Source of the DNA: a virus
Taxonomy: Duplodnaviria; Caudoviricetes
Direction: 5' to 3' (one strand)
IMG/VR virus record: IMGVR_UViG_3300001528_000580
Coordinates: 128,001-192,000 of that record
Length of the DNA: 64,000 bases
Positions 26,395 to 57,302 of the stretch are shown here, piece by piece; the first letter of the stretch is position 1, and each line of letters starts with the position of its first letter. The notes under the pieces were generated by a model, which saw only the letters and a list, made by a program, of their open reading frames with translations, was not told the DNA's origin and ran no database searches. The translations under genes were made by a program, and so were the position numbers.

Positions 26395-28845
26395 ATGATA
26401 AAGGATATAATTATATTAGCAAAAAAATATAAAATTGCTGGTAATATCAATAGTATTTCAAATGCAATTCAAGAAGAATTTTTAAGAAAATACCATTATA
26501 ATTCTTATAAAGATATTCCACCAGATAAAATTGAAAGATTAGAAGAATATATTTCAATAAGAAAAGATGAAATTGATAATGAATTAAAAAAACAGGTTAA
26601 AAATCCACAATATATTAGTTGGATTTATGATATTATTAAAAGCGGTAATCAAGGAATTGAAGATATTCAAAAATTAATTAATGAAATTGAAAGATTTGAA
26701 TATATTAGAAATCATGTTGATGCTATAAATGATAAATTTGAAAAGCAAGATAAGAAAAAGATAAATAAAAATATATTTAATATATTTAATTTTAAAACAT
26801 ACAGTGATTTACATTCATTTGTTTCTGAATATACTAGTTATTTAGAAGATAACATTGAAAGAGATAAATTAAAAAGTAAACCTATCAATTTCCCATTAGT
26901 ATATGAAAATTCAAAATATAAAGTATATTCAATTGGAGAAATGGAAGCAGATGATTTTCAAGAATTATATGGCGAAAAAGGTTGGGATACAGGTTGGTGT
27001 ATAGCACAAGGAACTGTTGATTTTAATGAGTATTTAGGTGAATATGATAGTTATTATCTTATACTTAATAAATCAAATGAACCTATATCATTAATTAGTT
27101 TAGATGATTTACAATTTAAAAATGTTCATGATGATACAATGATAAAGTTAGATAAATATATTATTGATGCAGTAGATCATATTTTATCAATTAATGGATT
27201 AGAAGCAGAAGACATAGATGAAGATGAATATAATGATTTTGAAGGATATATGTTAACAAAAGCATTTGAGTCAAATGCACAACAATTAGAATTATTTGAA
27301 GAATATGATAATTATGTAACAGAACACATGTATCATGATGTTGCGTTTATAAAAGATAAAAATGATAAATATAATTATTTTGTAACTAAAAATGGTAATT
27401 TATCATTAATTATTTCAACTAATTTACAAAATATATTATATATTAATTCAATGGATCAAGATATTGTTGAGGCTTTTTATAATATATTTAATTCTGAACG
27501 TTATCCATTAAATTATTTTGTAGTTAGAAATTATTCATTATTGACAAATTTTAATTTAAAAGAATATTTTGATTTCTTTATTAAAAATAAATTTATAGAT
27601 GGATTATCAAAAATTTTATCAACAAATAAAAAACTTAGTAAAGAACAAAAAGAAAAAGGTATTGATTTTATTTTAGAAAATGCAAGATATAAAAGTGATT
27701 TAGCAATTCTTAATACTATATACAGTGAAACAAATGATAAATTTTTAAAGGAATATATTAATAGTAAGGTTTTAAGTAGTAAAAGAATTAAAAATATTTC
27801 TGAACAAATTAAAAAATATCATTCAAAAGAAGATATTGAAGCCATAATTGATGAATTGTTGTCTAAAGTTATGTTGGATGGAACTATTATTGATGTTTTA
27901 TCAAAATATATTTATGTTGTTAGTAAAGAATACAAAGAAAAATTTATCGATTTTATATATGATGAAAATAAAATTGAAGCAGTTTTTTCTAATAATTCAG
28001 ATACAGTATCTTTTTCTCATAATTTAGATAAAGAGTTTAATAATATGTTAATTGAAAAATGTTTGAATGGTGATAAAGAAAAATATAAATTAATGTTGTT
28101 GACACAATTTAATAAAATGAGTGAAGAACAAAAAAATAAAACATTAAAAGAAGTATCAGGAATTGATTATGTATCGAGTTATTTGACTAATTTAATAATG
28201 AATTATCATATAGAAGATAAATTGATTCCAAGAATAGTAGATATAATGGTAACAGATAGCGAAATTAATTTTAGTAATATTTTAAAGTTGATTAAAAAAA
28301 ATAATATTAAAAACAGATTATTCATAAGTGAATTCATAAAAAAGGCATTATTAAATGCATATTGGGCTGTTGTAGCTGACTTAATGGTTGATCGTGAAAT
28401 TGTGGCAGATAATAATTTAATGAACTTTATTATTAATGATAATTATCCATATAAAAATGATTTGTTACGTTATTTAATATTAAAACCGACTATACATTTA
28501 AAAGAAGAACAAGTAGAAAAAATTATTGATTTTTTTATAAAAAATAAAAATACAATGTTATTGACTGAACTTTTATTTGGAGATGAATTACATTATTATA
28601 AAGATATTTTAAGAAAAGTAGCAATATATTTATTAAAATATTCAGATAATGATGATCCTCATTTATTAAGACGTATTTTGTCAGAATTTAAAAATGACAA
28701 TAATATTTCAAATGATGTATTAGATAAATTTAGAAAATTTTATAATAAAAATGACAAATATTTTAAAGAAGAAATTCAAAGAATAATTGATAAACAATTA
28801 TATAATTCAGATAAACAATTAGAATATTATAAAAAACTTTTATAA
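26395..28845 (+). CDS. Large hypothetical protein with G..TGWC motif and helical repeats; leader-bearing
   Basis: LYGEKGWDTGWCIA..FNEY; start revised to MIKDIIILAKKYKIA (AAGGA RBS). Confidence 0.7.
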   Translation: MIKDIIILAKKYKIAGNINSISNAIQEEFLRKYHYNSYKDIPPDKIERLEEYISIRKDEIDNELKKQVKNPQYISWIYDIIKSGNQGIEDIQKLINEIERFEYIRNHVDAINDKFEKQDKKKINKNIFNIFNFKTYSDLHSFVSEYTSYLEDNIERDKLKSKPINFPLVYENSKYKVYSIGEMEADDFQELYGEKGWDTGWCIAQGTVDFNEYLGEYDSYYLILNKSNEPISLISLDDLQFKNVHDDTMIKLDKYIIDAVDHILSINGLEAEDIDEDEYNDFEGYMLTKAFESNAQQLELFEEYDNYVTEHMYHDVAFIKDKNDKYNYFVTKNGNLSLIISTNLQNILYINSMDQDIVEAFYNIFNSERYPLNYFVVRNYSLLTNFNLKEYFDFFIKNKFIDGLSKILSTNKKLSKEQKEKGIDFILENARYKSDLAILNTIYSETNDKFLKEYINSKVLSSKRIKNISEQIKKYHSKEDIEAIIDELLSKVMLDGTIIDVLSKYIYVVSKEYKEKFIDFIYDENKIEAVFSNNSDTVSFSHNLDKEFNNMLIEKCLNGDKEKYKLMLLTQFNKMSEEQKNKTLKEVSGIDYVSSYLTNLIMNYHIEDKLIPRIVDIMVTDSEINFSNILKLIKKNNIKNRLFISEFIKKALLNAYWAVVADLMVDREIVADNNLMNFIINDNYPYKNDLLRYLILKPTIHLKEEQVEKIIDFFIKNKNTMLLTELLFGDELHYYKDILRKVAIYLLKYSDNDDPHLLRRILSEFKNDNNISNDVLDKFRKFYNKNDKYFKEEIQRIIDKQLYNSDKQLEYYKKLL

Positions 28846-28900
28846 TTTATGAAAGTAATATTTGTTTGGTTTTTCAAACAAAAAATAAGGAGATAGAAAA

Positions 28901-29185
28901 ATGAGTGAAGAAGTAAAAAAAGAAGCGGAAGTTAAAGAAGAAGTAAAGAAAAGTTCAAAATTAAGAGAAATTATAAAATATATTATTGTTCTTCTTGTTG
29001 GAGCTGCCGCTGCAGCAGGAATAATTAAACACGAAGATATTAAAGATGCTGTAATAAAAGGTGAACAAGCAAATGTACAAATTCAAGATGCAATGTATAA
29101 GGTTGATGTTGTTATAACAAAAGTTAAAGAATCAAAAGATAAAGATAAAGTTGTTGAAGAAGTTATAACAGAAGAAGTAAAATAA
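28901..29185 (+). CDS. Small single-TM membrane protein
   Basis: AAGGAG RBS; IIVLLVGAAAAAGII; terminator follows. Confidence 0.75.
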   Translation: MSEEVKKEAEVKEEVKKSSKLREIIKYIIVLLVGAAAAAGIIKHEDIKDAVIKGEQANVQIQDAMYKVDVVITKVKESKDKDKVVEEVITEEVK

Positions 29186-29210
29186 TTTAATATTATTTTG
29201 TTGTTAATTG

Positions 29211-29252
29211 ATAAATGGTAATAAGTTGTTAATTGTTACCATTTATTTTTTT
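29211..29252 (+). terminator. Probable terminator
   Basis: ATAAATGGTAA/TTACCATTTAT stem and T-tract. Confidence 0.65.
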
Positions 29253-29284
29253 AATATTTTTCTTTATAAAAACAAAAAGGAATT

Positions 29285-30091
29285 ATGATGAAACTTCAGT
29301 ATAAATTATATCTTATTGCAAAAACTTTAGAAGCTGGTGATATTGCATTTGATGAATTAAAAATCAACGGAGCTACTAATCTTGGAAACGTAAAAAACGA
29401 TTTAGATTCATATAGAGCTTATGAACCATATGGATTAAAATTAGAAAAAGGATCAAAGGAATATAAAGCGGTTCCTATTAGTGGAATGTTATATACCAAC
29501 CAATTAGTTTCTATTGCTTTGAACAGGATAAAAAATATTGATAAAGAAGTATTTAATAAACTCGGTCAATTATTTATAAATAATATTTTCTTAGATGCAT
29601 GTTTTAAAGTTTTAAATATTCCAATAAATCATAATCAAAATTTTGAAGAAGCAAAAAGACAAGTATTGGAAGATGAAAATGAAACGGTAATTACTGATAA
29701 AACAAGATTGAAAAATGGTTATACCGTAACTGCACCTGCAATATCACAAATGAAAAAATTTACAATTTCAATTCTCAATACAAGTGAGAAAGGTAGCATT
29801 GATAGTCTTGCAGAAAGAATAAAAGAAATTATTGTAAGAGAAAATGCAAGAGATTTAAGAGATATAGAAATTACCGTTGAAAATAAAAAAGTTGATGAAA
29901 TTTTAAGCAAAATTGATAAATATATTTCAGAAGATTATAAAGAAACTGGTGTTGAAGATGTAATTTTAAAAGATGGAATAAAAATAATAAACCAAATGAC
30001 TAAATCTAAAATGAATGAAAACTTCGATTATTATATGAATATGGAGCCTGGCGATAAAGAAACAATATTAACTTTTAGAGCTAAGTTATAA
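29285..30091 (+). CDS. Hypothetical leader-bearing protein
   Basis: N-terminus MKLQYKLYLIAKTLEA. Confidence 0.7.
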   Translation: MMKLQYKLYLIAKTLEAGDIAFDELKINGATNLGNVKNDLDSYRAYEPYGLKLEKGSKEYKAVPISGMLYTNQLVSIALNRIKNIDKEVFNKLGQLFINNIFLDACFKVLNIPINHNQNFEEAKRQVLEDENETVITDKTRLKNGYTVTAPAISQMKKFTISILNTSEKGSIDSLAERIKEIIVRENARDLRDIEITVENKKVDEILSKIDKYISEDYKETGVEDVILKDGIKIINQMTKSKMNENFDYYMNMEPGDKETILTFRAKL

Positions 30092-31231
30092 TATATTATT
30101 CAACCAAGTTTTTAAATTTTTATCTAAATTATTTATTATATAAAGAGAGAAGAGTTCTGCAAAAAACTCTTCTTCATTTTTTAAACTATATGAAGTTGGA
30201 ACATTGACAAAATCAATACCATTTACTTTTTTAATTGAATCAAATGTAATATAATAATGCTTATTATCAATAACAGATTTGCAAAGTATTTTGCCATTTT
30301 CATATTTAAGAAAAATAAATTTTTCCCCATCATTATTGATTAATTTATCACCTGTTCTGAATTTTTTGTTTTTAGTAAAATTATATCTTGTTTTAATTCT
30401 TTCTTTTGTATGTTCACTTAAATATCTATCATATAATCTATGCCCTAATTCATGTATAAAATATCGTATTATTTCTTCTTTTGAATTTTTTGCATTTACT
30501 CTTATATAATCTTTTTCACTTGTGTAATCAGCTGCAGCATTAGTAATATTTTTAACAAATTCTACAATTCCATAGCAAAGAAAATTAAATTTATTACCTA
30601 ACTTATTTTCAATTTGATCTAATATATCTTTTATGTCATCTTGATTTATAATATTATCACTTGATATTATTTTCCACTTTTTATAATCAAATTTATAAAG
30701 TCCATTATTATTTTTATTATTAAAATCAATAGCAATTCCAAAATGCGTTTCAAAATCACCAATAGAAAATTCAATTTTCTTACTTAATTCAGAAAATAGT
30801 TGTTCTGCATTATAAGAATGTTGTGATTTAACGTATAAATTTAATCTATTTTTATCAATTCTATTAAAATTAATATTTCCAATAGTTGATAAAAAATCTT
30901 TTTTGTGGTTTTTAAGTATATCAATTAACTGATTTTTAGAAATTTGTAGATATGAATTTAACTGGTTATCTGGAATATCAATTTCAAAATCTTTTTTTAT
31001 AATTCTTTTTAATGATTCTTTAGGTATAGATAACTCATTAAATTTATTTAAAATTTCTTTAAAACTATTTATTTCAAATAATATGTATTCATTTTCGCTT
31101 TTGTTAAGAACTGTATATAATGGATATTTATTATTATTGAGAAATGTTATTTGATCTTTTAATTTTATATAATAATAAAATTTTCTTGATATTAATAGTT
31201 TAGCAATTTTAAATAATTTATTTGAAAACAT
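30086..31231 (-). CDS. Leader-bearing zincin metallopeptidase
   Basis: FIHELGH and distal TSYSLKNEEEFFAELF (anthrax-LF/MPTase-like pattern); N-terminus MFSNKLFKIAKLLIS. Confidence 0.75.
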   Translation of the reverse strand: MFSNKLFKIAKLLISRKFYYYIKLKDQITFLNNNKYPLYTVLNKSENEYILFEINSFKEILNKFNELSIPKESLKRIIKKDFEIDIPDNQLNSYLQISKNQLIDILKNHKKDFLSTIGNINFNRIDKNRLNLYVKSQHSYNAEQLFSELSKKIEFSIGDFETHFGIAIDFNNKNNNGLYKFDYKKWKIISSDNIINQDDIKDILDQIENKLGNKFNFLCYGIVEFVKNITNAAADYTSEKDYIRVNAKNSKEEIIRYFIHELGHRLYDRYLSEHTKERIKTRYNFTKNKKFRTGDKLINNDGEKFIFLKYENGKILCKSVIDNKHYYITFDSIKKVNGIDFVNVPTSYSLKNEEEFFAELFSLYIINNLDKNLKTWLNNIL

Positions 31232-31261
31232 ATCTATTCCTTTTTATAGAAATAAAAAAAT

Positions 31262-31299
31262 AAAAAAAATTGTAATGAAAAAATAATATCATTACAATT
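31262..31299 (-). terminator. Probable terminator
   Basis: AATTGTAATGA/TCATTACAATT stem and U-tract on the minus strand. Confidence 0.6.
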
Positions 31300-31320
31300 C
31301 TTATTAAAAAACAATAACTA

Positions 31321-31727
31321 TTAATTTATTTTGTTTCCTTTTTTAAAATTACATCTGGCGCACATTGTTTGTAAATTAACAAGTTCATTAAGACCACCTT
31401 TTGATTTTGGAAAAATATGATCTTTTGTAAAAAGAATTTCAACTCCTCTATTATTAAAACCATAAAGGTTAAAATGCCAACAATTTCTATTAGCTTGTTC
31501 TTGACAACCAGCTTCAATGCGAAAATATGATGCTTTACAGCCACATGAAGCACATGTAAGGCTTTTCCGAAAGTTTCATACCTTAAAGAATATTGCGAAA
31601 TAAGAGCACCGTCAACGTTTATTCTTGCAATTCCTTTTTTCTTTGCAGTATGCTTAGGAATATAGTTGATTGGTATTATTGAAAACACTTCTTCAATAGA
31701 ATATTTCTTGTCGTTATAACGAATCAT
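31321..31727 (-). pseudogene. HNH endonuclease with a single -1 frameshift near 31570
   Basis: After RYET, the -1 frame reads FRKSLTCASCGCKASYF...FTKDHIFPKSKGGLNELVNLQTMCARCNFKKGNK*, matching the intact paralog at 60782-61204. Confidence 0.85.
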
Positions 31728-31754
31728 ATTTTTCCCTTTTATATTGGACAATAT

Positions 31755-31782
31755 AATATATCATAAAAATTTGTAAAATCAA
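31755..31782 (-). promoter_or_regulatory. Sigma70-like promoter
   Basis: TTGATT-N16-TATATT with TG extension. Confidence 0.75.
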
Positions 31783-31837
31783 CTATATTTATTCATAAAA
31801 TTTAATATTTTTTATTTATAAAAAAGGAGTCAAGATA

Positions 31838-32491
31838 ATGGACAAAAAATTAATGATTGCAATTGCAAAATTAAAGAAACAAATAGATGCTTTTGAGGAA
31901 GAATTTAAATTTAATAATTTTAAGAAAGATTATGATAAGAATTCAAAGTCAAAAAAAGAAGATTTGAAAAAAGATGTTTTAAAACAAATTAAAAATGATC
32001 AATTAGAAGAATCTGATATTATAAAAATAATTAATTTAGCAAAGAGTAACAATGATTTATATTTTGTATATGAAATAGGAAAACTTTTAAAAGATAATGA
32101 TACAAAAGCATTACAAGCTGTAACATTTTATTTAAATAAATATGGTAACGAAGATCTTTTAAAGAAATTGATTAAAAGTGGAAACATCAGAAAAGATTTT
32201 GCTATTGAAGTAATTGGAGGTTATGAAGAAATAACTTATTTACAAGGTGATGAAGCAGATACATATATTGGTTATTTTGAAGAAGGTAAAAAAGGAAAGT
32301 TATTTAGTAGCTTAACTGAATTTGATTATGGTGATGGTGGAGAATGGTTTTTTGAAGATGAAATTAGACCTCGTGGTTATGATTTTTTAAGTAACAGTAA
32401 TTATGCAGTTGTATGTAATACAAAATTAGGTGATATTGGTTTTTATAAAGTAATTAAGGGAATCGGATTAAAAGGTAATCCAACTAAATAA
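31838..32491 (+). CDS. Hypothetical leader-bearing protein
   Basis: N-terminus MDKKLMIAIAKLKKQIDA; AAGGAG RBS; bidirectional terminator. Confidence 0.7.
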   Translation: MDKKLMIAIAKLKKQIDAFEEEFKFNNFKKDYDKNSKSKKEDLKKDVLKQIKNDQLEESDIIKIINLAKSNNDLYFVYEIGKLLKDNDTKALQAVTFYLNKYGNEDLLKKLIKSGNIRKDFAIEVIGGYEEITYLQGDEADTYIGYFEEGKKGKLFSSLTEFDYGDGGEWFFEDEIRPRGYDFLSNSNYAVVCNTKLGDIGFYKVIKGIGLKGNPTK

Positions 32492-32498
32492 TAAATAT

Positions 32499-32533
32499 AA
32501 AAAATGGGGAACTTAAAAAGTTCCCCATTTTTT
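32499..32533. terminator. Bidirectional terminator
   Basis: AAAAAATGGGGAACTT/AAGTTCCCCATTTTTT. Confidence 0.9.
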
Positions 32534-32534
32534 A

Positions 32535-33545
32535 TTATTCAATTTCTTCTTTTTTAGGTTTTAGTTTAAATCCTTCTTTACCATCTTTTTTAACGTTAGC
32601 TTTAAAGTCAATATTAAAAGTTTTTGCCCAAATTTTAATTTTCTTTTTTAGTTCATCAAGTTCAATTGGTTCAAACATTCCTGCATAACTTTCTAATAAA
32701 TCTATATTACTAAAAAATCCATCTCCTTTTAATATTCTTGATTTTAATTTTAACCAATTCTCTAAAAAGTATAAAAAGTCTTCGCCAACTTCTTTTTCTA
32801 ATTCTTCATATTTATTTTCTTTAGATGCTTTTATGAAATCAGCAAATAAATCTCTTTTTTTTCTTCCATCGCTAATTAAATCACATTCATAATAATATCC
32901 TTGAACATCTCTTATAAAAAATTGTTCTCCTAATCTTAAAGCCTCTATTTTTTCAAATTTAATTCTATTTTTATATTCAACAAAATCAAGACTAACACCT
33001 CTGTCAATTAGTTCTTTGCCTAAATACCACTTTTCTGTATATCTTCCTTTTTCAAGTTCTTCATCTGTAAGAATACCCTTTTCTCTTACAACATGTTCAA
33101 ATAAACTTTGATATTTTTCAATAAATATACCAAATTCTTGCATCTCATTTGCTTTTGCAAAATTTCCGCTACTAATACCATGATACATACAAAATGTTAA
33201 TTGACCTAAATATCTTTCGTCACCTAAACACCAAAGCATAAATCCACAACTATCAATTTCTCCTGTACCTATTGTAACAACATATTCAAATTCTTGTATT
33301 TGTTGCATAAGCAATATTAATGTACTACATGAACCACCTTGACTATTAATCCAAATATGCAATTCTTTATTTTTATCAGCTTCTTTTAGATCAATTAGTA
33401 GATCACTATATATTGAAGCAACTTGATCTGCTGTTTCAAAATCACTACTGAAAATTAGATCATATCTATCATTCATGTCATAAAATTTAATACTTTTATC
33501 GGCATACTTATCTAATAATTTGACTTCATTAATTTCTTCTCTCAT
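32535..33545 (-). CDS. ClpP-like serine protease with C-terminal extension
   Basis: WINSQGG, GEIDSCG (catalytic Ser), MYHG (His). Confidence 0.8.
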   Translation of the reverse strand: MREEINEVKLLDKYADKSIKFYDMNDRYDLIFSSDFETADQVASIYSDLLIDLKEADKNKELHIWINSQGGSCSTLILLMQQIQEFEYVVTIGTGEIDSCGFMLWCLGDERYLGQLTFCMYHGISSGNFAKANEMQEFGIFIEKYQSLFEHVVREKGILTDEELEKGRYTEKWYLGKELIDRGVSLDFVEYKNRIKFEKIEALRLGEQFFIRDVQGYYYECDLISDGRKKRDLFADFIKASKENKYEELEKEVGEDFLYFLENWLKLKSRILKGDGFFSNIDLLESYAGMFEPIELDELKKKIKIWAKTFNIDFKANVKKDGKEGFKLKPKKEEIE

Positions 33546-43513: not shown

Positions 43514-44059
43514 ATGAATTTAATAAGTAAAGAACTTATGAAGTTATCAAAAGAAATATACAAAATAGCATCAACTGGAAATTCAGGAATTGATTTTGAG
43601 TTGCACACAGAAGGTGAATTTGTTTTTAAAGTTGAATTTGATGGTAAAAAAATAAAATTTGGTAAAAAACCAATTGAAACACCAAGATTATTATCATTTG
43701 ATGCTATTGGAGATGAAGAAGGTTCTGAAAATATCAAAGAAAAGTTAATTGAAATTAAAAATGCATTCTTCAAAAAGGATGAATTATTTGATTACTTTGG
43801 TTCTTTAGCTCGCAATAAAGAAATAGAAGTTGGAACATATGAAGTAAAATTAACATTAGATAAAAATCCAGTAAAAACATTATTTAATGGTGGAAGAAGA
43901 GGATATTTAACTGGTGGTGAAGATATTACTTTTGATGAAGTTCCTTATACATTAACTTTTGAAGATGATGAAATTGAAAAAGGAAAATGTGAAGTTCAAA
44001 TTGTCTTTACAAATGCAATTGAAAAATGGTATGATGAAACATTTAAGAAGTACAGATAA
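43514..44059 (+). CDS. Hypothetical leader-bearing protein
   Basis: N-terminus MNLISKELMKLSKEIYKIAS; AAGGAG RBS. Confidence 0.7.
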   Translation: MNLISKELMKLSKEIYKIASTGNSGIDFELHTEGEFVFKVEFDGKKIKFGKKPIETPRLLSFDAIGDEEGSENIKEKLIEIKNAFFKKDELFDYFGSLARNKEIEVGTYEVKLTLDKNPVKTLFNGGRRGYLTGGEDITFDEVPYTLTFEDDEIEKGKCEVQIVFTNAIEKWYDETFKKYR

Positions 44060-44084
44060 TATAAAAAAATAAAATGCAAATAAT

Positions 44085-44114
44085 AAAAATGACTGGAATT
44101 TTCCAGTCATTTTT
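44085..44114. terminator. Bidirectional terminator
   Basis: AAAAATGACTGGAA/TTCCAGTCATTTTT. Confidence 0.9.
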
Positions 44115-44505
44115 AATTTAATCTTAAAAAATTATTGTTTTCATTATTCAATTCATCAAGAACTTTCTTACAAGCATCCTCTGCTATTTTAACACCAATT
44201 TTATAATATTTATCATTTCTTATGTCAAGATATTTTTGAAATATATTAAAAACTTCTTTTTTGAATTTTAAGTCATTAGAAATAATATATAAATATGGTG
44301 GATAACCAACTACATTATTTAATTCTAACTCTTCAAAATCTCTGATTAAGTGTTTTTTTCCACTTGAGGTTTCTTCGACATATATATCATGTGTATTAGG
44401 ATGTTGAGAATATTTAATTACTTTATCTTTTATTATTCTAAAAATAAAATAATTACCTTTTTTATCTGTATCTATTACAGCTATATATAGATATAAGTTA
44501 TTCAT
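44113..44505 (-). CDS. Hypothetical protein
   Basis: AGGAG RBS. Confidence 0.65.
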   Translation of the reverse strand: MNNLYLYIAVIDTDKKGNYFIFRIIKDKVIKYSQHPNTHDIYVEETSSGKKHLIRDFEELELNNVVGYPPYLYIISNDLKFKKEVFNIFQKYLDIRNDKYYKIGVKIAEDACKKVLDELNNENNNFLRLN

Positions 44506-47343: not shown

Positions 47344-47736
47344 ATGAAATATATTGAAATAGCAAGAGAAGTATATAAAATTGCGGCAAATGAAGCTACC
47401 GTTGATGCTTCAATGTGGGAAGATATAATTTATTTAATCAAAAATTTTAAAGGTGAACAAGACAGAAATGGTAAAATTATCTTAAAATTTAATTTTTGTG
47501 AATGGACAATTGATTTAAAAATAGATTATTTATTAGAAGAAAATGATGATACAAAAGAAATTTCAATAAATGAAAGTATTATTGAATTTAAAGTAAAAAA
47601 TGATGTTTATAATAAAGTAACAGAAAAATTAAAAGAAGATTTTGATAAAATAGATAATTTTGTATCAGAAATAACATCTATAAATAAAGATTTAGGAACT
47701 CAAATACAAAAAAATACATTTATGCAGTTTAGATAA
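47344..47736 (+). CDS. Hypothetical leader-bearing protein
   Basis: N-terminus MKYIEIAREVYKIAA. Confidence 0.7.
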   Translation: MKYIEIAREVYKIAANEATVDASMWEDIIYLIKNFKGEQDRNGKIILKFNFCEWTIDLKIDYLLEENDDTKEISINESIIEFKVKNDVYNKVTEKLKEDFDKIDNFVSEITSINKDLGTQIQKNTFMQFR

Positions 47737-47739: not shown

Positions 47740-47770
47740 AAAAAAGGAGCGAATATTCGCTCCTTTTTTT
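47740..47770. terminator. Bidirectional terminator
   Basis: Perfect palindrome AAAAAAGGAGCGAATATTCGCTCCTTTTTT. Confidence 0.9.
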
Positions 47771-48741
47771 TATACTAATAAATCAATATATTTATTACAA
47801 ATATCTTCAATCATATCTTTACCTTGAAGACAATGAATCCATTGTTTAGGAATACTATCAAAACCAAAATATGCTCCAGCAAGTGAACCATATATTGCAC
47901 CATAAGTATCTGAATCTCCTAATTTATTAATTGCCATTATCATTCCTGTTTTAAAATCATTAGCTTTTTCAAAACATTCCATTGCTAAATAGTAACTATA
48001 TACAATATTACCAGAAGCAGATTTTTCATAAAGTTCTTCAACTGTTATTGTATCTGAAAGAACTTCATTACAAACATTCATAAAAGAATATCTTTCTGGT
48101 GTGATACATTCTTTATCTACACATAAAAATGCATCTCTAATAGCTAAAGCGTATAACATTGTGAAATTCTTACAAATATTATTATTATGAGTCGTTTTTG
48201 CACTTTCAGAGGCAAAATAAGCGCACTCAACAGGAGAATCGATGAAGTATAAGGGTATTGGCAATATTCGCATTAGAGAGCCGTTTCCAAGCGTTGTTTC
48301 ATTACCATTAAAAATAGTTCCATTATCTTTAAAATTTTTTAATGCGTCTCTTGTTGCTCCACCTGATCCTATTGATTTTTCACAGCAAGATAAATATCCA
48401 TTATAAAGCCACTCATAATATTTTTTTAACTGGTCATTATAATTAAAACCATTTTCAATTAATGAATATGCAAGACATAGCATCATAGAAGTATCATCTG
48501 TCCATGTTCCAGCAGGTAAATCTTTAAAATTGTCATGACCATTTAAAGTTCCACCATGTAACATTTGTGTTACTAATCCAATTCTATCTCTCTCACTTTT
48601 ATTTTGAAATTCTACTGGCATACCAAGAGCATCACCAACTGCGCAGCCATAGAAAGCACCTTTTATTTTATTAATAATTGCATCTTTATTGCCAAACATT
48701 AGATATGTAAATTCTTTTTTTGTCATTTTTATGGTTCCCAT
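47770..48741 (-). CDS. ADP-ribosylglycohydrolase (DraG/ARH family)
   Basis: AVGDALG, WTDDTSM, GNGSLMR, TH, GDSDT.GAI.GSLAGA; start may be 48726. Confidence 0.93.
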   Translation of the reverse strand: MGTIKMTKKEFTYLMFGNKDAIINKIKGAFYGCAVGDALGMPVEFQNKSERDRIGLVTQMLHGGTLNGHDNFKDLPAGTWTDDTSMMLCLAYSLIENGFNYNDQLKKYYEWLYNGYLSCCEKSIGSGGATRDALKNFKDNGTIFNGNETTLGNGSLMRILPIPLYFIDSPVECAYFASESAKTTHNNNICKNFTMLYALAIRDAFLCVDKECITPERYSFMNVCNEVLSDTITVEELYEKSASGNIVYSYYLAMECFEKANDFKTGMIMAINKLGDSDTYGAIYGSLAGAYFGFDSIPKQWIHCLQGKDMIEDICNKYIDLLV

Positions 48742-49473: not shown

Positions 49474-49935
49474 TTATACCTTTTTAAAATTCATAATTTT
49501 TGTTAAATAACTATTTGTATAAATATGTGTTTCAATATCAGAATTGACACTTTCTACATATGACAATACCTTTTTGAAATTAATTGTTTTTAATTTTTCT
49601 CCAAAAATAAAAAATCTTTTTGAATATCTTATTTCATAATCCAATAAATTACTTTCAAATTCTGGATCATCTAACATATTTTGATGATGTTCACTACATA
49701 CAAAAAAAAGATTTTCTGTATATGGATAGAATATATTACATTTTTTACCAACTACTTTAACAGTATTTTTATCTATATATAAATTACAATCGTAAAAAAT
49801 ATAGTCATAATATCCTTTAATCGTTTTTAATGTTTCATTATATAAATAAAAACAATCTTGTGATGAATATCTATTTATCAATAAAGTTTTTACACCTATA
49901 ATTTCTTTACTTCCTACATCATACATTTTTAGCAT
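49474..49935 (-). CDS. Hypothetical protein
   Basis: ORF with AAGGA RBS. Confidence 0.6.
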   Translation of the reverse strand: MLKMYDVGSKEIIGVKTLLINRYSSQDCFYLYNETLKTIKGYYDYIFYDCNLYIDKNTVKVVGKKCNIFYPYTENLFFVCSEHHQNMLDDPEFESNLLDYEIRYSKRFFIFGEKLKTINFKKVLSYVESVNSDIETHIYTNSYLTKIMNFKKV

Positions 49936-50551
49936 TCCTTTGTCTATTGCATTTTTGACAGATTCTTCTTATCCAACCACTTGTTTCAATAATTTTATTA
50001 TTTTCTGTCTCTGAACAACCACATATTTCACATATATTATAACATTCTTTTTGTGCTTCTTTTATTAATTGGTTTACCTTTTTATAATATTCTATCTGTT
50101 CCTCTTTTGAAATATTTTTCTTTGTTTTTAAATATAAATAATTAATAAATCTTATTATTGTATTAATCGGTTTTTTCATAAAACCAATTTTTTTAGTTAT
50201 AATATATTTATAATAATAAATTTTATTATTTCTTTTTATATAACTAATTATATTATCACATAAATGTTGACCATCAGGAATTTCATATAATAATACTTTT
50301 TCATTTAAATTAAAATAAAAGCATAAAGATCCAAACTTTTCTTTAACTTGTTCTGCTTCTATGTTAAATTTAAATGGTTTCAATTCTTTATTTATTAATT
50401 CCAATTTAATGGTTAGTTTTTCTAAAGGAATAAACCACCCATCTCCACAAGTAAAACCAGATGACATACATGAATTATATGAATCTAATTTTCTTTGTTT
50501 ATATAAAATTTTACCTAATTTATACAATTTTTTTTCATGTATTATGTTCAT
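49919..50551 (-). CDS. Conserved phage hypothetical protein
   Basis: GFTCGDGW, QVKEKFGSL.FY, CEICG..GWI...C..C. Confidence 0.7.
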   Translation of the reverse strand: MNIIHEKKLYKLGKILYKQRKLDSYNSCMSSGFTCGDGWFIPLEKLTIKLELINKELKPFKFNIEAEQVKEKFGSLCFYFNLNEKVLLYEIPDGQHLCDNIISYIKRNNKIYYYKYIITKKIGFMKKPINTIIRFINYLYLKTKKNISKEEQIEYYKKVNQLIKEAQKECYNICEICGCSETENNKIIETSGWIRRICQKCNRQRNAKNV

Positions 50552-50579
50552 TATATGCTCCGTATTTCAATAATATATT

Positions 50580-50607
50580 AATATAACACATGAAATAAAA
50601 AATACAA
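50580..50607 (-). promoter_or_regulatory. Sigma70-like promoter
   Basis: TTGTAT-N16-TATATT with TGTG extension. Confidence 0.75.
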
Positions 50608-50608
50608 A

Positions 50609-51604
50609 TTAAAAGTTAAAATTTGTATTACTTCTCATATATTCTTTAAACTCTTGACGACATTTTTGAATATCTTTAAGAACATCATTAAAATTATGTG
50701 ATTTAATGAAATAGCACAAATGTTTAATAAAATCAACTTTATTCATTAAATTTTCAATGTCAGTAGTCGATTTAAAAAATCTAAATTCTAATGTATTTTT
50801 TGATGTAAGATTAAGAGAATCATGATGTTCACTTGTATCAGATCTCCCCCAACAACTTACAGTTTTACTTCTTTTTATACAGTATCTATTAAATGCTCTT
50901 TCTCCTACAATAGACATCAAATCAGAAAACTCATTTACAATAAAATCGGCAGTTCTAATATTATCATCTTCAAAAAAAGAACGATTTACGTGAAAATGAA
51001 TACCACAATTATCTGTAGATTGAATATCAAGTTCTTTCAATCTTTCAAATATACTTCTCCACGGCATAATTGATTTATGTGCCATTGCTGTTGCAGGATG
51101 ACTAACAATTTCAAATCCATAATTGGGAATACTTGTATCATATTTAGAATAAACATGTGGATTTTTAAAAAATTCATACAAAAACTTTTCAGCATTTGAT
51201 TTTTCTCCACCACTAATTTCATATTCAATACCGATAAACAAGTCTTCATCATCTTTCATTTTATAAAAAATTGGCTCTGGTTTATAGAAGTAATCTCTGA
51301 TATATTTTGGATTACGACAATCATAACACAAACACCATGATGTATCACGATCAAATACATTTCCACAACTTTCGCAAATGTTCAGATTTTTTTTACAATC
51401 ACAACAAAGAAATTTGCAACCACCTTCATTTAACCAAATCCGGTATGAACAATCTTTTTCAAGAAGAATATTACAGTTACAACATTCTTCATAAGATCTT
51501 AAATCACAGCACTTTTTACAAATTTTAATTCTTTCAACTCCCAAATCTTTTACAATTTCTACATCGATTGTGGCGTTTTTAGAATTACAGAAGAAACAAT
51601 TCAT
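50609..51604 (-). CDS. Putative amidoligase, paralog 8 (6 CxxC)
   Basis: GIEYEISGG, KYDTSIP.YG, EIVSHP, CGIHFH, SLN..TLEFRF. Confidence 0.85.
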   Translation of the reverse strand: MNCFFCNSKNATIDVEIVKDLGVERIKICKKCCDLRSYEECCNCNILLEKDCSYRIWLNEGGCKFLCCDCKKNLNICESCGNVFDRDTSWCLCYDCRNPKYIRDYFYKPEPIFYKMKDDEDLFIGIEYEISGGEKSNAEKFLYEFFKNPHVYSKYDTSIPNYGFEIVSHPATAMAHKSIMPWRSIFERLKELDIQSTDNCGIHFHVNRSFFEDDNIRTADFIVNEFSDLMSIVGERAFNRYCIKRSKTVSCWGRSDTSEHHDSLNLTSKNTLEFRFFKSTTDIENLMNKVDFIKHLCYFIKSHNFNDVLKDIQKCRQEFKEYMRSNTNFNF

Positions 51605-51608
51605 CTTA

Positions 51609-52562
51609 TCAATCCTTATATTTGATATTTAATAATTTAATAATATTTTCTTTTGCTTGTTTATTGTGTTGTTCATAAACTGAACGATATATATCTTTAT
51701 TACTTAAATCTGTAAGAAATTTTTTTCTTCCATTGTAAAATTGTTCTTTGGTTATAAAGGTCAAATATTCATTTTCAATATTTTCATCAGCATTACATAA
51801 TTTATCGAAATTATAAAAATAAGAATAATCTAAGTCATGCATGATATTACAGAGTTTCATTATCATGTTAAAAAGTTTTGGACTATCACAAAATAAATAT
51901 TCTTTTTTTTCTTCAAATGAAATTGTACTTTTAATAATACTAGATGCAATATCTGTTTCTTTGCTTTCAATAATATTATTTTGTAATTTAACAGTTGATT
52001 GGTATTCGTTATCATTATCTATTGCTCCTGGAACATAAACACAATCATGATAACAAATTGCAGCACAAAGAATATTATATTCTTCATTTGTAAGATCAAT
52101 ATGTTCAAGTTGATTAAGTAAATCGATAATATGATCAATATTATGATAGTTATTGGAATTATTATAAAAACGCTTTGCTTTATTAAATACGATTTGTTTA
52201 AAAATATTTTTTTCAAGAATATATGGATTATATTCTTTTTTTTCACCAGAATCATTAATACAGACAAAAACTAAATCTGTGGACAAGACAATTTGTTCAT
52301 TTCTTACAACTTGAATTTTAAATGAGAGAGATGTTTTTCCGCAACATGGTTCATTAACAATAAATTTAATAACATCATTTGCGTGTACCGGATTGTGAAA
52401 AATTGTTTCTGCTATCTTTAAAGTTACAAATTTTTCATTTGGGAATAATTCTCTTGTAAAAAGAGCACCTGCTTCATCAATCCAATCAAGCATTCTTCCA
52501 CCATAGAGATTATTATTCAATCCAATATCAAAATTTTTCACTAAATGAGTTGTAATAAGCAT
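51609..52562 (-). CDS. Hotdog acyl-CoA thioesterase fused to an HD-type phosphohydrolase
   Basis: N-terminal NNNLYGGRMLDWIDEAG and GKTSL; C-terminal YHNIDHI, YHDCVY, DNE..S, DLDYS. Confidence 0.8.
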   Translation of the reverse strand: MLITTHLVKNFDIGLNNNLYGGRMLDWIDEAGALFTRELFPNEKFVTLKIAETIFHNPVHANDVIKFIVNEPCCGKTSLSFKIQVVRNEQIVLSTDLVFVCINDSGEKKEYNPYILEKNIFKQIVFNKAKRFYNNSNNYHNIDHIIDLLNQLEHIDLTNEEYNILCAAICYHDCVYVPGAIDNDNEYQSTVKLQNNIIESKETDIASSIIKSTISFEEKKEYLFCDSPKLFNMIMKLCNIMHDLDYSYFYNFDKLCNADENIENEYLTFITKEQFYNGRKKFLTDLSNKDIYRSVYEQHNKQAKENIIKLLNIKYKD

Positions 52563-52594
52563 TTCAAAAATCCCTTTTATGTTTCAATATAAAT

Positions 52595-52622
52595 AATATA
52601 GCACATAAAAAGAGAAAATCAA
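52595..52622 (-). promoter_or_regulatory. Sigma70-like promoter of thioesterase-HD and amidoligase 8
   Basis: TTGATT-N16-TATATT with TGTG extension. Confidence 0.75.
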
Positions 52623-52643
52623 CCATATATATAATTATTTTAG

Positions 52644-52964
52644 TTATTTTTTTGATTGTAAAGAAGATATTTCAGTTAACAACTTGTTATAATTATTTAT
52701 CTTTTTACAGATATCTTTTTTAAGTTCTAAAAATAATTTATTTTTATAATCATCATAATTTTGATTATCAATTGATGCAATTTTATAACTATTATTTTCT
52801 TTAATAACATTACCAATAATTTCATTATCAATTTCAAATAATTTTTTTAATCTATCATTATATAAATACATATAATGATTTCCATTTTTTCTAACATTAG
52901 AAAATTTGTGTTCTAATAGTTTTAATTTATCACCAAATGATAACTCAATGATTGTAATATCCAT
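52644..52964 (-). CDS. Hypothetical protein
   Basis: Coupled ORF. Confidence 0.55.
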   Translation of the reverse strand: MDITIIELSFGDKLKLLEHKFSNVRKNGNHYMYLYNDRLKKLFEIDNEIIGNVIKENNSYKIASIDNQNYDDYKNKLFLELKKDICKKINNYNKLLTEISSLQSKK

Positions 52965-53563
52965 TATATATTTAACTCTATTTGTAATTGATAATCTTGC
53001 ATAAAATATGTTTTTAATTTATACTTTTTTTGCAAGTAAAATCTTATAAACATAATATTTTCTTTGAAAACCAATTCATTTATATCTAAATCTTTGTAAC
53101 TAATAATTATAGAACTTGAAAATATATTATCGTCAATTTTTAGCAAGTAATAATGACAAATATTGTTTTTTATAAAATCTTTTATTTTACTTACAATCAT
53201 TTTTTCATTATCATTGTATTTTTTCAAGTTTTTATTTATTCTTTTATTGATTTTTGTACAAGTATTGATTGTAACTTCAAATTTTTCAAATTCTCTATCA
53301 TATTCTAAAACAATACCATATTTATCTCTAATCTTTTTTATTATATATGATATTGCATAATCATTATTTAAATAATCATCAAAAAATGAAATTGAATTTT
53401 TAGATATAATGCATTTATTAACATCAAAATTATTTTTAATCTTATTTGCTATATATTTAGGTAAAAATTCATTGATAAACTTTGATATATTATTGTTTAA
53501 TCTTTTTAAAACTTTTCTTTGTTTTTTCTTGTATGTTTTTCTTAATTTATCTATTGTATTCAT
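52964..53563 (-). CDS. Hypothetical protein, possibly internally duplicated
   Basis: Two similar halves (..FI...CIIS..KYGI / ..FI...IIIS..KYKL). Confidence 0.55.
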   Translation of the reverse strand: MNTIDKLRKTYKKKQRKVLKRLNNNISKFINEFLPKYIANKIKNNFDVNKCIISKNSISFFDDYLNNDYAISYIIKKIRDKYGIVLEYDREFEKFEVTINTCTKINKRINKNLKKYNDNEKMIVSKIKDFIKNNICHYYLLKIDDNIFSSSIIISYKDLDINELVFKENIMFIRFYLQKKYKLKTYFMQDYQLQIELNI

Positions 53564-53574
53564 TTTTATACCAA

Positions 53575-54150
53575 CTAAGAATTTAAATAATTACAAATAT
53601 CTTGTGCAATTTCAGAAGTAATACCTATTTCTTCTTCTGTTTGAAAAAATTTGGCATTATTAGGTATTCCGAATCCAGCATCTTCTCTATCATCAATTAC
53701 TGCACACTTTTCAATGTGTCCAAATGTATTATTAAATAACCACATTCTGATTTCTGAACCTCTTGCACAACTTCCGCTAAAATATTGTTTAGATAAATCA
53801 GGAGTATAACCAATTAACCTATTTCCTGGAAGTCCTCTTCTATTAAACATTTCTTTTGCATCTTCAATATTACTATATCTTTTCAACTTTCTCCATGTAC
53901 TACTCCAAAGAATATTTGCATCAGTTTTTTCACAAATATCATAAATTATTTTTGCAAGTTCTGGAAAAACCAATTCTTCACAGTTACAAAATTCTTTAGC
54001 ATATTTACTACGAACTGCTTTTCTTAATTTTTCATAGTCACAAGAATATTCTGGATTATTTTCTAATTCTTTAAATTTGTTATTTATCCAATTTCTAATA
54101 AGATAATTCGAATTAATTACACCATCCATATCTAAACAAATTAGCTTCAT
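53575..54150 (-). CDS. HAD-family 'Swiss Army knife' RNA-repair-type phosphatase domain
   Basis: LDMDGVINS, ILWSSTWR, RGSEIRMWL, AVIDD. Confidence 0.85.
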   Translation of the reverse strand: MKLICLDMDGVINSNYLIRNWINNKFKELENNPEYSCDYEKLRKAVRSKYAKEFCNCEELVFPELAKIIYDICEKTDANILWSSTWRKLKRYSNIEDAKEMFNRRGLPGNRLIGYTPDLSKQYFSGSCARGSEIRMWLFNNTFGHIEKCAVIDDREDAGFGIPNNAKFFQTEEEIGITSEIAQDICNYLNS

Positions 54151-54365
54151 AATTTTACCTTTTGTTTGTTATATTCTTTTAATAATTTGGATTTATCAAG
54201 TTTATCTCTACTCCAATTCATAGCAAGAATACAAAAATCAATCTTATTTTGTATACCATACCACTCAATTAAATCATGAACAATTAATTCATAATCATAT
54301 TTTCCAATTTCATCTTTACAATATTCTTCTAATTTTTTCATTTTATTAATCCATTCATTCCCCAA
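54147..54365 (-). CDS. Hypothetical protein
   Basis: Coupled ORF. Confidence 0.55.
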   Translation of the reverse strand: MGNEWINKMKKLEEYCKDEIGKYDYELIVHDLIEWYGIQNKIDFCILAMNWSRDKLDKSKLLKEYNKQKVKL

Positions 54366-54925
54366 ACACGATGCTTTTCTCTTATTATCTCATTACAACC
54401 TTCTGGTTGATCAACTTCCCATTCAATATCATCAGGAATTTCAACAACTTTCATAGGATATTTACCATACCAATTTTCTTCATCACCAGAACATGTTTCG
54501 CAATATTCTTCAATTAATTTAATTAAATTTGGATCTGTCCTGTTTTTATCATTAATATCTAAACCATAATGACTAAAGTTAAAATGTTCATTAAATAACA
54601 TAGTATATTCTTCAATATTATTATCATTTTTTTCTAATAATGAAAATAATATTTCATTTTTTTGAATTAATTTTAACTCTTCATTATTGCAATAATAATA
54701 ATTACAACAATTATCGTTAGGTTTCATTACCTTGTAAGTATGTGAATAGCAATCTACATTTTTTTTAATATGTTTATCTTTGTATTTTTCTATATCATCA
54801 GATGTTAGTTTCACTGACTTAATATAAATTGGAAACATATTTGTAATTCCATTTAATTCAAACCATCTTTTTTGTACATAATATGGAACTTGTGATTCTC
54901 CTAATCTACATAAAATTACTTTCAT
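54338..54925 (-). CDS. Conserved phage hypothetical protein
   Basis: RTDPNLIKLIEE, KVVEIPDD.EW, E.IREKHR.W. Confidence 0.7.
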   Translation of the reverse strand: MKVILCRLGESQVPYYVQKRWFELNGITNMFPIYIKSVKLTSDDIEKYKDKHIKKNVDCYSHTYKVMKPNDNCCNYYYCNNEELKLIQKNEILFSLLEKNDNNIEEYTMLFNEHFNFSHYGLDINDKNRTDPNLIKLIEEYCETCSGDEENWYGKYPMKVVEIPDDIEWEVDQPEGCNEIIREKHRVWGMNGLIK

Positions 54926-54934
54926 AAAAAATCC

Positions 54935-55300
54935 TCAATTTATTTTATATTTATCACAAAAATTAAAAACTTCATTTTTTAAATAAGGATAATATTTGAT
55001 GCAAGTTTGACGTGCATTCAGTGGTTTATCTGGTTTCGTAAATCTAGCACTTTCCCAATCAAATATTGCTTCTGAAATTCTAAACCAACCTATAATATTT
55101 TTTGGGTGATGCCAAGAAAACATACGATGTATTTTACTAATCATTTTATCAGGAATAAATAACAACATCATAATCATTTTATCCATATCATGAATATAAG
55201 TTAAAAGAGTATTACGACCAATATATTGTTTTTCAATACGAATCACTTCTCTACGGTGGGCAATATTATAATTTAACTTATATTTTAATCTTTCAAACAT
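54935..55300 (-). CDS. HD-like conserved phage protein
   Basis: H...IHDMDK...HR..S.HH...DWESARFTKPDKPLNAR. Confidence 0.7.
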   Translation of the reverse strand: MFERLKYKLNYNIAHRREVIRIEKQYIGRNTLLTYIHDMDKMIMMLLFIPDKMISKIHRMFSWHHPKNIIGWFRISEAIFDWESARFTKPDKPLNARQTCIKYYPYLKNEVFNFCDKYKIN

Positions 55301-55336
55301 GTTTATCCCTTTTATTTTTATATTGCAATATATAGT

Positions 55337-55364
55337 AATATAGCATTATTTTTTCTTTTTTCAA
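55337..55364 (-). promoter_or_regulatory. Sigma70-like promoter
   Basis: TTGAAA-N16-TATATT with TG extension. Confidence 0.75.
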
Positions 55365-55402
55365 ATTTTTAAATAATTTTCTTTCTTTAAAAAAGGAAAA
55401 AT

Positions 55403-55750
55403 ATGAAATATAGTAAAAAATTATTATTAATTGCAAAAATATTATTTGCAAATGATAAAATTATTCAAACTATTTTAGATGCTGCTGTTAATAAACATGC
55501 TGTCAATATGGACTATGTAACTAAAACAGCAAATGAGTTAAAAAATTATATTGTAGTTCCATTAGAAATAAAACAGAGAAAATTAACAAATGGAACTACA
55601 ATGGTATTATATGCTGAAGATATAAATGATGGAAATAGAACAAAAACTTTTATTTTAAAAAATATTAAAAGAATTAATGAATTAGATAAAAGTTTTAGAA
55701 CAAAACACCCAATAAAAATACATCAAAAATTAGATAATTCATCAAAATAA
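55403..55750 (+). CDS. Leader-bearing WYL-like domain protein
   Basis: V.M.Y, YIVVPLEI, LYAED, KTFILKNI pattern; N-terminus MKYSKKLLLIAKILFA. Confidence 0.65.
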   Translation: MKYSKKLLLIAKILFANDKIIQTILDAAVNKHAVNMDYVTKTANELKNYIVVPLEIKQRKLTNGTTMVLYAEDINDGNRTKTFILKNIKRINELDKSFRTKHPIKIHQKLDNSSK

Positions 55751-56016
55751 CTTTTTGCAATATCAAAGTTATTAAAGTATTTTTTTGTTATATTATCAGT
55801 ATTATTATTTTTATAATACATTGATATAACAAACATTTTTTTATGTAAATGTTCAACATATTCATAAGAAAAAACATATTTAAATTTATCATTTCTTACA
55901 AACACATCTATTTCATCATCAATTATAATGTATATTGAATCATTTCTTATGTTAGATTCATCTTTTACATATATATAATCAATGTCATCTTTATATAAAA
56001 TAACATGATCAAACAT
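55723..56016 (-). CDS. Hypothetical protein
   Basis: ORF downstream of amidoligase 9. Confidence 0.55.
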   Translation of the reverse strand: MFDHVILYKDDIDYIYVKDESNIRNDSIYIIIDDEIDVFVRNDKFKYVFSYEYVEHLHKKMFVISMYYKNNNTDNITKKYFNNFDIAKSYFDELSNF

Positions 56017-56030
56017 TTTTATACCTACTT

Positions 56031-57050
56031 TTAAAATATTTTTCTAGCTTTAGCTTTTTTATATAATAAATTATATTTATCTTTATTGTTAAAGATATAT
56101 GATGCATACTCTGCAACAGTTTTATTATTTTCCCATACAGAAATAGTTTTTATAAAATTAATTAAAGAATGTACTAATTGGAGTCTTTCAATAAATGTAT
56201 TATAACAAAAAGTAGAACTAAAAATTCTAAATTCAATAGTATTTTTACCCATAAAATTTATCATTTGATATCTATTCATTGATTTTCCCCAACCATCATT
56301 ATGTTTATTTGCTCTATAACAATAATAGTTAGGATTTCTGCCTGTAAAATTTCTCATGAATTCAAAATTATTATAGAAAAATAAATCAATATTTCTATTA
56401 TCTTTTTCAGTTAATATATCTTTATTAACATGAACATGCATACCGCATCCTCTTCTACTATTAATTTTGTAGAGAGATAAATCTTTCATTATTTTGTTCC
56501 AACCAAGTTTATTTTCATGAAATTTTAATGAACATGGATGACTAACAATTTCAACACCATATGCAGGTATACTACAATCACTTTTAAAATATAATAATTT
56601 GTCTGATATATCATCAAAATATGATCTACAAAAATTATTAACATTTTCTATTTTATCACAACCACCCACTTCTAATTCTACACCCATAAATATATTATCA
56701 GTATCATTTTCATCTAAATGAAATACTGGTTCAGGCTTATAAGAATATTGGAAAATAGGGTGTTTAAAACAATTGAAACAAACATTTTCATAATCAGTTT
56801 TAAAATTATCAGTAATAAATTTATTACAAATTTTACATACAGATAATTTACTAGAACATTCTTTACATATCAATAAATTATAACAACTTATATATAATTC
56901 ATTTACTTTAAAACAATTTCTACATAACTCACACCGACAAAAATTAAATGAACAACGTAAACATAAATATGCTTCTTTTTTAAACTCACCGTTTATCATT
57001 ACATTTTCATACTTTTTACCTTCATGATTATGACATTCAAAACACAACAT
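56031..57050 (-). CDS. Putative amidoligase, paralog 9 (6 CxxC)
   Basis: GVELEVGG, KSDCSIP.YG, EIVSHP, CGMHVH, RYQMIN..TIEFRI. Confidence 0.85.
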   Translation of the reverse strand: MLCFECHNHEGKKYENVMINGEFKKEAYLCLRCSFNFCRCELCRNCFKVNELYISCYNLLICKECSSKLSVCKICNKFITDNFKTDYENVCFNCFKHPIFQYSYKPEPVFHLDENDTDNIFMGVELEVGGCDKIENVNNFCRSYFDDISDKLLYFKSDCSIPAYGVEIVSHPCSLKFHENKLGWNKIMKDLSLYKINSRRGCGMHVHVNKDILTEKDNRNIDLFFYNNFEFMRNFTGRNPNYYCYRANKHNDGWGKSMNRYQMINFMGKNTIEFRIFSSTFCYNTFIERLQLVHSLINFIKTISVWENNKTVAEYASYIFNNKDKYNLLYKKAKARKIF

Positions 57051-57113
57051 ATTAACTTACCTTTAATTTACTTTTTTTTATATTTTACTTTAAATAAAAA
57101 ATGAGGTTCAATT

Positions 57114-57302
57114 ATGAGAAAATTAGCAAAAGAATTAAAGAAACTTGCAAATGAGTTAAACATGTTTTTTATAGCAGAAGATCTTGAACAAATGAGTGAA
57201 GAATTAAAGGAAGCTGTTTCCGATAAAACTCAAGATAACTTCATGAAAAATATGAAAAACATGATGAAAAAAAATAAATTTAATGTCACTCAAGGCAAGT
57301 AA
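57114..57302 (+). CDS. Small leader-bearing protein
   Basis: MRKLAKELKKLANELNMFFIA; GAGG RBS; bidirectional terminator. Confidence 0.65.
   Translation: MRKLAKELKKLANELNMFFIAEDLEQMSEELKEAVSDKTQDNFMKNMKNMMKKNKFNVTQGK

Follow-up and report, generated by a model that had tools for sequence, protein, structure and literature searches.

A short basic N-terminal leader on unrelated proteins of a huge gut phage: a candidate head-docking tag

In bacteriophage T4, head-internal proteins are taken to the prohead core by an N-terminal propeptide of 10–20 residues, the capsid-targeting sequence (CTS), which is removed by the head protease (PMC5694885). IPI–III and Alt are internal proteins with such a sequence (Mullaney and Black 1996, cited in PMC5694885). 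The giant-phage head proteases described there cut after Glu, the rule for SPN3US being A-X-E (PMC5694885), and the head propeptides of phiKZ, 201phi2-1 and SPN3US have A-X-E or S/A/G-X-E sites (PMC5694885, PMC10052503). Here we describe an N-terminal leader on unrelated proteins of a huge gut phage, which may be a head-docking tag of this kind. It was noticed in a window of 64,000 nucleotides, by which we mean the whole stretch from base 128,001 to base 192,000 of the IMG/VR contig IMGVR_UViG_3300001528_000580.

The contig holding the window has 440,868 bp (~441 kb), direct terminal repeats and a G+C content (GC) of 25%, and it uses the standard genetic code. Gene calling on the whole genome of this phage, in the following referred to as G000, yielded 628 genes. 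The original prediction had listed nine genes of the window with a common N-terminus; all nine leaders were found as written (Table 1), and each gene is preceded by an AAGGA-type ribosome-binding site. Four of them, together with two genes elsewhere in the genome (33930 and 40762, both on the plus strand), form a core family of six with the consensus x-K-L-x-K-I-A-K-x-L-x-A-x-D at residues 4–17. A position matrix separates the six core proteins far above all others, the motif starting at residue 4–6 in each, and in leave-one-out runs of the position-specific scoring matrix (PSSM) every core member ranks 1 or 2 among the 121,101 positions of the 628 proteins. Within the first 25 residues the strict form L..IAK.L is present five times, versus once in ~113,000 internal positions, which is a ~36-fold enrichment, and shuffling of each protein's own N-terminus gives 0.25 expected members of the core family versus six observed. 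Judged by the leave-one-out ranks and by shuffling, the motif is thus enriched N-terminally in a proteome rich in Lys, Ile and Leu.

The other five of the nine leaders are weaker under a rigid position matrix than the four core members in the window. Most of them fit patterns that were composed post hoc, when the data had already been seen: [KR]E[LI]xx[ILV][AS]xx[LIVY] (43514 and 57114) is found at 6 N-termini versus 0.1–0.3 expected, and K[IL]A[AGS][NTGS] (26395, 43514 and 47344) at 4 versus 0.3–0.4 expected. In the 31838 protein the core is present with a shift of one residue, and an ungapped model scores it low. Core and looser leaders all align in one register, and P0166, an ortholog of the 46230 protein, which reads SKELKNIAKIIIATD, unites both forms in a single sequence. 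Besides 33930 and 40762, members outside the window are encoded at genome positions 35776, 96526, 116462, 116856, 238675, 244618 and 415623; counting the outside members and one additional candidate in the window (49919–50551, minus strand), the tag is carried by ~20 of the 628 G000 proteins. The core of the leader is [KR]-x-L-x-[KR]-[IL]-[AS]-[KR]-x-[LI]-x-[AS], which usually is followed by an acidic residue. Indeed, the residue conserved after Ala is acidic (A-N-D, A-T-D, A-G-D, A-N-E, A-E, A-D); A-(x)-D/E follows most leaders, and Asp is commoner there than Glu.

The proteins behind the leader are unrelated, as had been claimed: an all-against-all BLAST of 21 tagged bodies gave weak coiled-coil matches only. 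They range from 62 to 858 amino acids (aa) and include a zincin, an ankyrin-repeat protein, a WxNGxW beta-solenoid and proteins without any family. Some of the more specific body assignments did not hold. The matches to WYL (E 0.001) and M78 (E 0.006) are both below the Pfam cut-offs, although the HELGH motif of the zincin is present, and the 57114 product, given as a peptide of 40 aa, actually has 62 aa. No PDB match was found by Foldseek for the 29285 body and no PDB sequence match for the zincin body (30086–31231), and neither Pfam nor PHROGs has a family that matches the leader or most of the bodies. The tag is also not described in these two databases or in the accessible jumbo-phage literature. 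A likeness of the 40762 protein to the product of head gene 430136 was dropped, since it is merely that of K/E-rich coiled coils.

The residues of the leader are kept while the codons vary between copies, and orthologs of two of the cargoes with 57–86% identity retain it (those of 46230 at 62–86% identity, and four orthologs of 29285). Distant homologs of the 46230 beta-solenoid body start differently or with a doubled tag (IKIAKQLVRLAKSLVAIDEE), and three homologs of the zincin body in LR745208.1, an uncultured phage of 485 kb, are without leader. The tag recurs in G001, a 42.8-kb huge-phage fragment with 50% GC, where two adjacent counter-oriented genes carry it, and in the phages G002 (47% GC) and G004 (43% GC); the AT-richness of G000 therefore does not account for it. 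Judged by its residues, codons and orthologs, the tag is a modular add-on selected at the protein level.

This has to be weighed against the common upstream layout of the tagged genes, in which a hairpin, a T-run, TATAAA and AAAGGA succeed each other. The leader could have no common function at all and be part of an inherited gene-start cassette (terminator, T-run, ribosome-binding site and first codons) that was spread by recombination, or be a remnant of ancestry. The combination of T-run and ATAT is enriched upstream (9/15 tagged versus 82/292 other genes; ~4-fold, p 0.016), where it overlaps with terminator tails; for this reason the argument from promoters in the original prediction, which had found at best a weak promoter match for 29285, carries little weight. 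A cassette would not explain why residues are kept when codons differ between copies, why orthologs, and phages ranging in GC from 23 to 50%, still carry the tag, and why its position and register are fixed. We consider such a cassette very unlikely. As to other upstream elements, GGTGTATAGTATA is present upstream of ~24 G000 genes versus 2 expected; it or a related sigma-70-like element was found for 1 of 15 tagged genes.

The leaders are net positive and have a mean hydrophobic moment of 0.57, versus 0.41 for other N-termini. Lys and Arg break the helix, so that the longest uncharged run is 2–6 residues in 20 tagged proteins out of 21, the remaining one having a run of 9. A Sec or lipoprotein signal peptide was ruled out, because the leaders have no uncharged hydrophobic core of ~10 or more residues. 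For the 29285 protein AlphaFold2 (AF2) predicts a helix at residues 2–14, a low-confidence stretch at 18–38 and then a confident body, and for the 46230 protein it predicts the leader as a low-confidence extension apart from the confident body. Directly after the leader of the 29285 protein (residues 25–45; window 29360–29420) stands GATNLGNVKND, which is invariant in four orthologs and has a predicted local distance difference test score (pLDDT) <50; this stretch may be a second functional motif.

The major head protein of G000 is of the phage-G type, with 39% identity to gp27 of Bacillus phage G, 61% to that of LR745208.1 and 46% to that of the Tunturiibacter phage Tunturi_5. It is encoded in a head module on the plus strand at genome 422–437 kb. 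IMG/VR contigs with the closest head protein were taken as relatives: G002 and G003 (70% identity, GC 47–48%), which are the same phage where both contigs overlap, G004 (69–70%, GC 43%) and G005 (60%). A scoring matrix seeded solely on the dispersed genes of G000 and G001 was run on every N-terminus of these relatives. In G002, three of the four top N-termini belong to genes between the portal and the head-protein genes, where they flank the protease gene, and in G004 all three top N-termini lie inside the portal-to-capsid block. At the same threshold 1 of 1809 internal windows matched in G002 and 0 of 925 in G004. The head-block leaders of both phages align in register with the dispersed ones. 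In G000 itself, the distal half of the motif, written post hoc as K-x-h-h-A-(x)-D/E, is found at the N-terminus of 4/12 portal-to-capsid genes versus 4/611 others (Fisher p 5e-6). A look for the motif in capsid and scaffold proteins had been suggested, and by gene position the leader is linked to the head morphogenesis module.

Since in related phages the leader sits on proteins of the head-assembly cluster, it is probably a capsid-loading tag. To the reading that it is a head-docking tag like the CTS of T4 we assign a probability of roughly 50%. The leader would be a short, basic, amphipathic docking helix, borne by head-module proteins (candidates for scaffold or internal core beside the protease) and acquired by dispersed unrelated genes. 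The helix would bind to some part of the core or shell of the prohead during assembly, and the tagged proteins would be built into the prohead as in the case of the T4 CTS. Binding, packaging, cleavage, late timing and delivery into the next host are steps that we infer. The address tag of the original prediction therefore survives in so far as the leader is an N-terminal module, transferable between unrelated proteins and tied to head morphogenesis. As for the cut after x-x-Ala that was part of it, conservation points instead to the acidic residue that follows Ala; trimming at A-(x)-D/E, with the head maturation protease as the enzyme, would agree with this and is rather doubtful.

Table 1. 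Leader genes, terminators and head genes of G000, and leader proteins in the head blocks of two relatives (positions are those of the window unless marked as genome positions).
Feature	Position	Strand	Remarks
Core leader gene, 115 aa	55403–55750	+	MKYSKKLLLIAKILFAND...; body weakly WYL-like; leave-one-out rank 1/121,101
Core leader gene, 227 aa	46230–46913	+	WxNGxW beta-solenoid repeat body, acidic tail
Core leader gene, 268 aa	29285–30091	+	body without sequence family; motif after second Met
Core leader gene, 381 aa	30086–31231	-	zincin-like body (HELGH, distal EEFFAELF)
Looser member, 181 aa	43514–44059	+	KELMKLSKEIYKIAS
Looser member, 62 aa	57114–57302	+	KELKKLANEL...FFIAED
Looser member, 130 aa	47344–47736	+	YIEIAREVYKIAANE
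Looser member, 217 aa	31838–32491	+	KKLMIAIAKLKKQIDAFEE; core shifted one residue
Looser member, 816 aa	26395–28845	+	DIIILAKKYKIAGN
Additional candidate beyond the nine, 210 aa	49919–50551	-	EKKLYKLGKILYKQ; top N-terminal score outside seeds, 9.7
Two-way terminator hairpin	32497–32535		after 31838–32491
Two-way terminator hairpin	44084–44115		after 43514–44059
Two-way terminator hairpin	47740–47769		between 47344–47736 (+) and 47770–48741 (-)
Two-way terminator hairpin	57309–57339		after 57114–57302
Large terminase	genome 422410	+	
Portal	genome 426040	+	
Head maturation protease	genome 432391	+	phrog_18299
Decoration-like protein	genome 435987	+	
Major head protein, 285 aa	genome 436491	+	
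G002 head-block leader protein, 77 aa			ARELLRIAKELIAVSD
G002 head-block leader protein, 242 aa			RELLRIAREILAVD
G002 head-block leader protein, 86 aa			ARALLAIAKDLLVA
G004 head-block leader protein, 113 aa			AKRLLKLAKALSAG
G004 head-block leader protein, 255 aa			RLRRLASLLVAE
G004 head-block leader protein, 105 aa			AKRLVRLAKELSSA

The arrangement of the genes is as had been described: eight of the nine leader genes are on the plus strand within minus-strand blocks, and four of them end at two-way terminators, the hairpins of which could be located (Table 1). The 26395 gene has an upstream ATG at 26377 without ribosome-binding site. Besides the head maturation protease, G000 encodes two proteases of the ClpP family, one in the window (32535–33545, minus strand), converging on the tagged gene 31838–32491, and one at genome 22613–23035 (plus strand). 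In the head module the products of the genes at genome 429043, 434355 and 435120 (L009) contain 27–33% Asp+Glu, have basic N-termini and belong to no family; with their scaffold-like composition they are the likeliest candidates for scaffold or core proteins. The G001 contig also contains, at 27.9–42.7 kb (L013–L014), an array of ~30 small paralogous CxxC zinc-finger genes.

More distant relatives of G000 have N-terminal tags of their own. In phage G the tag MKRLIKK[AS] is found on 26 of 718 called proteins, and KRL is present in the first 22 residues of 23 proteins versus 3.2 expected. Five of the 13 head-block genes carry this tag (p 4e-5; L015, which is phage G 9.3–38 kb, and the whole record). 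Several of the tagged phage G proteins continue into a YHGT motif, which may be ADP-ribosyltransferase-like. The text of the 2025 phage G paper is without mention of tagged proteins.

In LR745208.1 a tag of 28 residues, TLRSKLIRLAHxNPxLRPxLLPLLKxA, is found on 11 proteins, one of which is encoded between the protease and capsid genes. This module occurs at 42 IMG/VR loci (among them L068:2501-2782 and L069-L108); the 31 distinct proteins that carry it there have bodies of 29 unrelated clusters. In a library of 1.84 billion proteins, 3,670 cluster representatives match the module; among the top 150 listed by summed score there are 2–5 copies per protein in N-terminal, internal and C-terminal positions, connected by very acidic linkers. 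Pfam has no family for the module. The linkers of multi-module proteins (L126:6803-7750; P0018, P0025, P0044) share a second motif, EPYMKGxFTxxExxELxDxQ, and are tied by BLAST to a 315-aa protein of a 381-kb phage; its gene lies three genes upstream of the one for the head protease, with one open reading frame between them.

A homology of the G000 leader with the LR745208.1 tag was considered and dropped, because neither a PSSM nor a hidden Markov model (HMM) of the module singles out the G000 leaders. With the PSSM of module helix 1, 40762 was the only G000 leader among the top matches. The module HMM, built from 297 copies, found nothing significant in G000 (best domain E-value 1.6), whereas the proteins of LR745208.1 itself were found with 1e-13 to 1e-18. 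A 21-column alignment of the leaders had no match in phage G, LR745208.1 or Tunturi_5, the filter of this first look being probably too coarse. The sequence VKILENP at the N-terminus of the protease, which has some likeness to the LR745208.1 tag, belongs to the conserved protease sequence and is no tag.

The helix does not have to dock to the capsid. It could be a docking or oligomerisation tag for another partner, such as a phage complex, a membrane surface or a host hub, with the head-module carriers being further clients. The helix is basic and amphipathic and has small residues along one side, which fits packing against another helix or peripheral contact with a membrane, and many of the tagged genes are distant from structural genes, amid genes for RNA repair and amidoligases. 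Such a partner is nevertheless unlikely, given that the top matches in G002 and G004 cluster in the portal-to-capsid block and that phage G shows an enrichment of its analogous tag among the head-block genes.

It should also be thought of that the tag might be the recognition site of a phage enzyme, either a protease for processing or degradation or a paralog of amidoligases or amidohydrolases, and would then serve modification or timed destruction rather than packaging. Of the two ClpP-like genes in G000, the one in the window adjoins three tagged genes. There are 13 Amidoligase_2 matches in G000, and two of the tagged genes, 43514 and 57114, form divergent pairs with paralogs of this kind. 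However, most of the tagged genes do not adjoin genes for such enzymes, and in a region rich in paralogs some adjacency is expected by chance. Tagged genes are present in LR745208.1, which lacks both ClpP and Amidoligase_2, as well as in phage G and in the G001 fragment (13% complete), both of which lack Amidoligase_2. Of the phages compared, G000 is thus the only one with Amidoligase_2, and ClpP, absent from LR745208.1, is found in G000 and in phage G. We regard an enzyme recognition site as quite unlikely. Each of the three alternatives is weakened by a different observation: the other partner by the concentration of the leader in the head module, the enzyme site by the distribution of the enzymes, and the cassette by conservation at the protein level.

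There are also several points that speak against a head-docking tag. The tag is known in G000 and in all its other carriers from sequence alone, and no homology of the G000 leader to the tags of phage G or LR745208.1 could be detected, which makes those tags analogies only. Under the same matrix G005 gave no leader matches, and Tunturi_5 has one leader-like N-terminus and no tag family. In G000 the genes at the equivalent positions, 430136 before the protease gene and 433366 after it, have degenerate copies of the leader, and the distal-half pattern was, as mentioned, made up after the fact. The leader carriers in the head modules match no PHROG or Pfam family. The head protease of G000 has no Pfam match to S77, the family of T4 gp21, or to S78, and it is Asp rather than Glu that predominates after the Ala of the leader. 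A predicted complex of capsid protein and leader had a score of 0.00; it was obtained without controls and is counted neither for nor against.

If the leader is a head-docking tag, ~20 proteins would be packaged in G000, among them the zincin, the ankyrin-repeat protein and the beta-solenoid. One could then read from sequence alone which proteins uncultured huge phages package and inject, and the tag would mark which of the orphan genes of megaphages are virion-delivered, first-minute weapons. There would also be a short natural tag for loading foreign proteins into large capsids. It is possible, and for the time being a tentative generalization, that phage-G-like huge phages have clade-specific N-terminal tags that were copied from head-core or scaffold proteins of the same phage and load swappable effectors into the capsid. 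Even without a function in packaging, the leader links dispersed orphan genes with head-module proteins and thus offers a testable handle on proteins without family.

Short peptides or domains that dock cargo inside an HK97-fold shell are found in the cargo-loading peptides of encapsulins and in P22 scaffold-fusion loading. The leader is modular as these are; the peptides of family 1 encapsulins, however, are C-terminal and of another sequence. The 28-residue module of LR745208.1 also stands N-terminally on unrelated bodies and has one carrier encoded between the protease and capsid genes, although it is longer (two helices), non-homologous and often present in 2–5 copies at both ends with acidic linkers. 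In phiKZ, 201phi2-1 and SPN3US, N-terminal regions of head proteins are likewise thought to direct these proteins to the prohead. These phages belong to another lineage than G000 with its phage-G-type capsid protein, and their propeptides mostly have >100 residues and are not one common short tag. The A-x-acid after the leader resembles the A-X-E recognized by the SPN3US head protease, with Asp often replacing Glu.

Like the leader, the T4 CTS, which ends ...FIAE, is a short N-terminal tag on unrelated proteins that is shared with head-core proteins, in the case of the leader by gene position only. The leader ends, like the CTS, with a hydrophobic residue, Ala and an acidic residue, and it has cargo that looks like effectors: the zincin in G000 and, in the analogous case of phage G, the YHGT proteins, which may be ADP-ribosyltransferase-like, as is Alt. 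There is no sequence likeness beyond the last residues, Asp often takes the place of the T4 Glu, the protease of G000 is not of the Pfam S77 family, and the leader is so far known from genes. If the comparison holds, the handful of capsid-targeted proteins in T4 would have a far larger counterpart in another phage lineage, an exchangeable set of ~20 proteins in G000.

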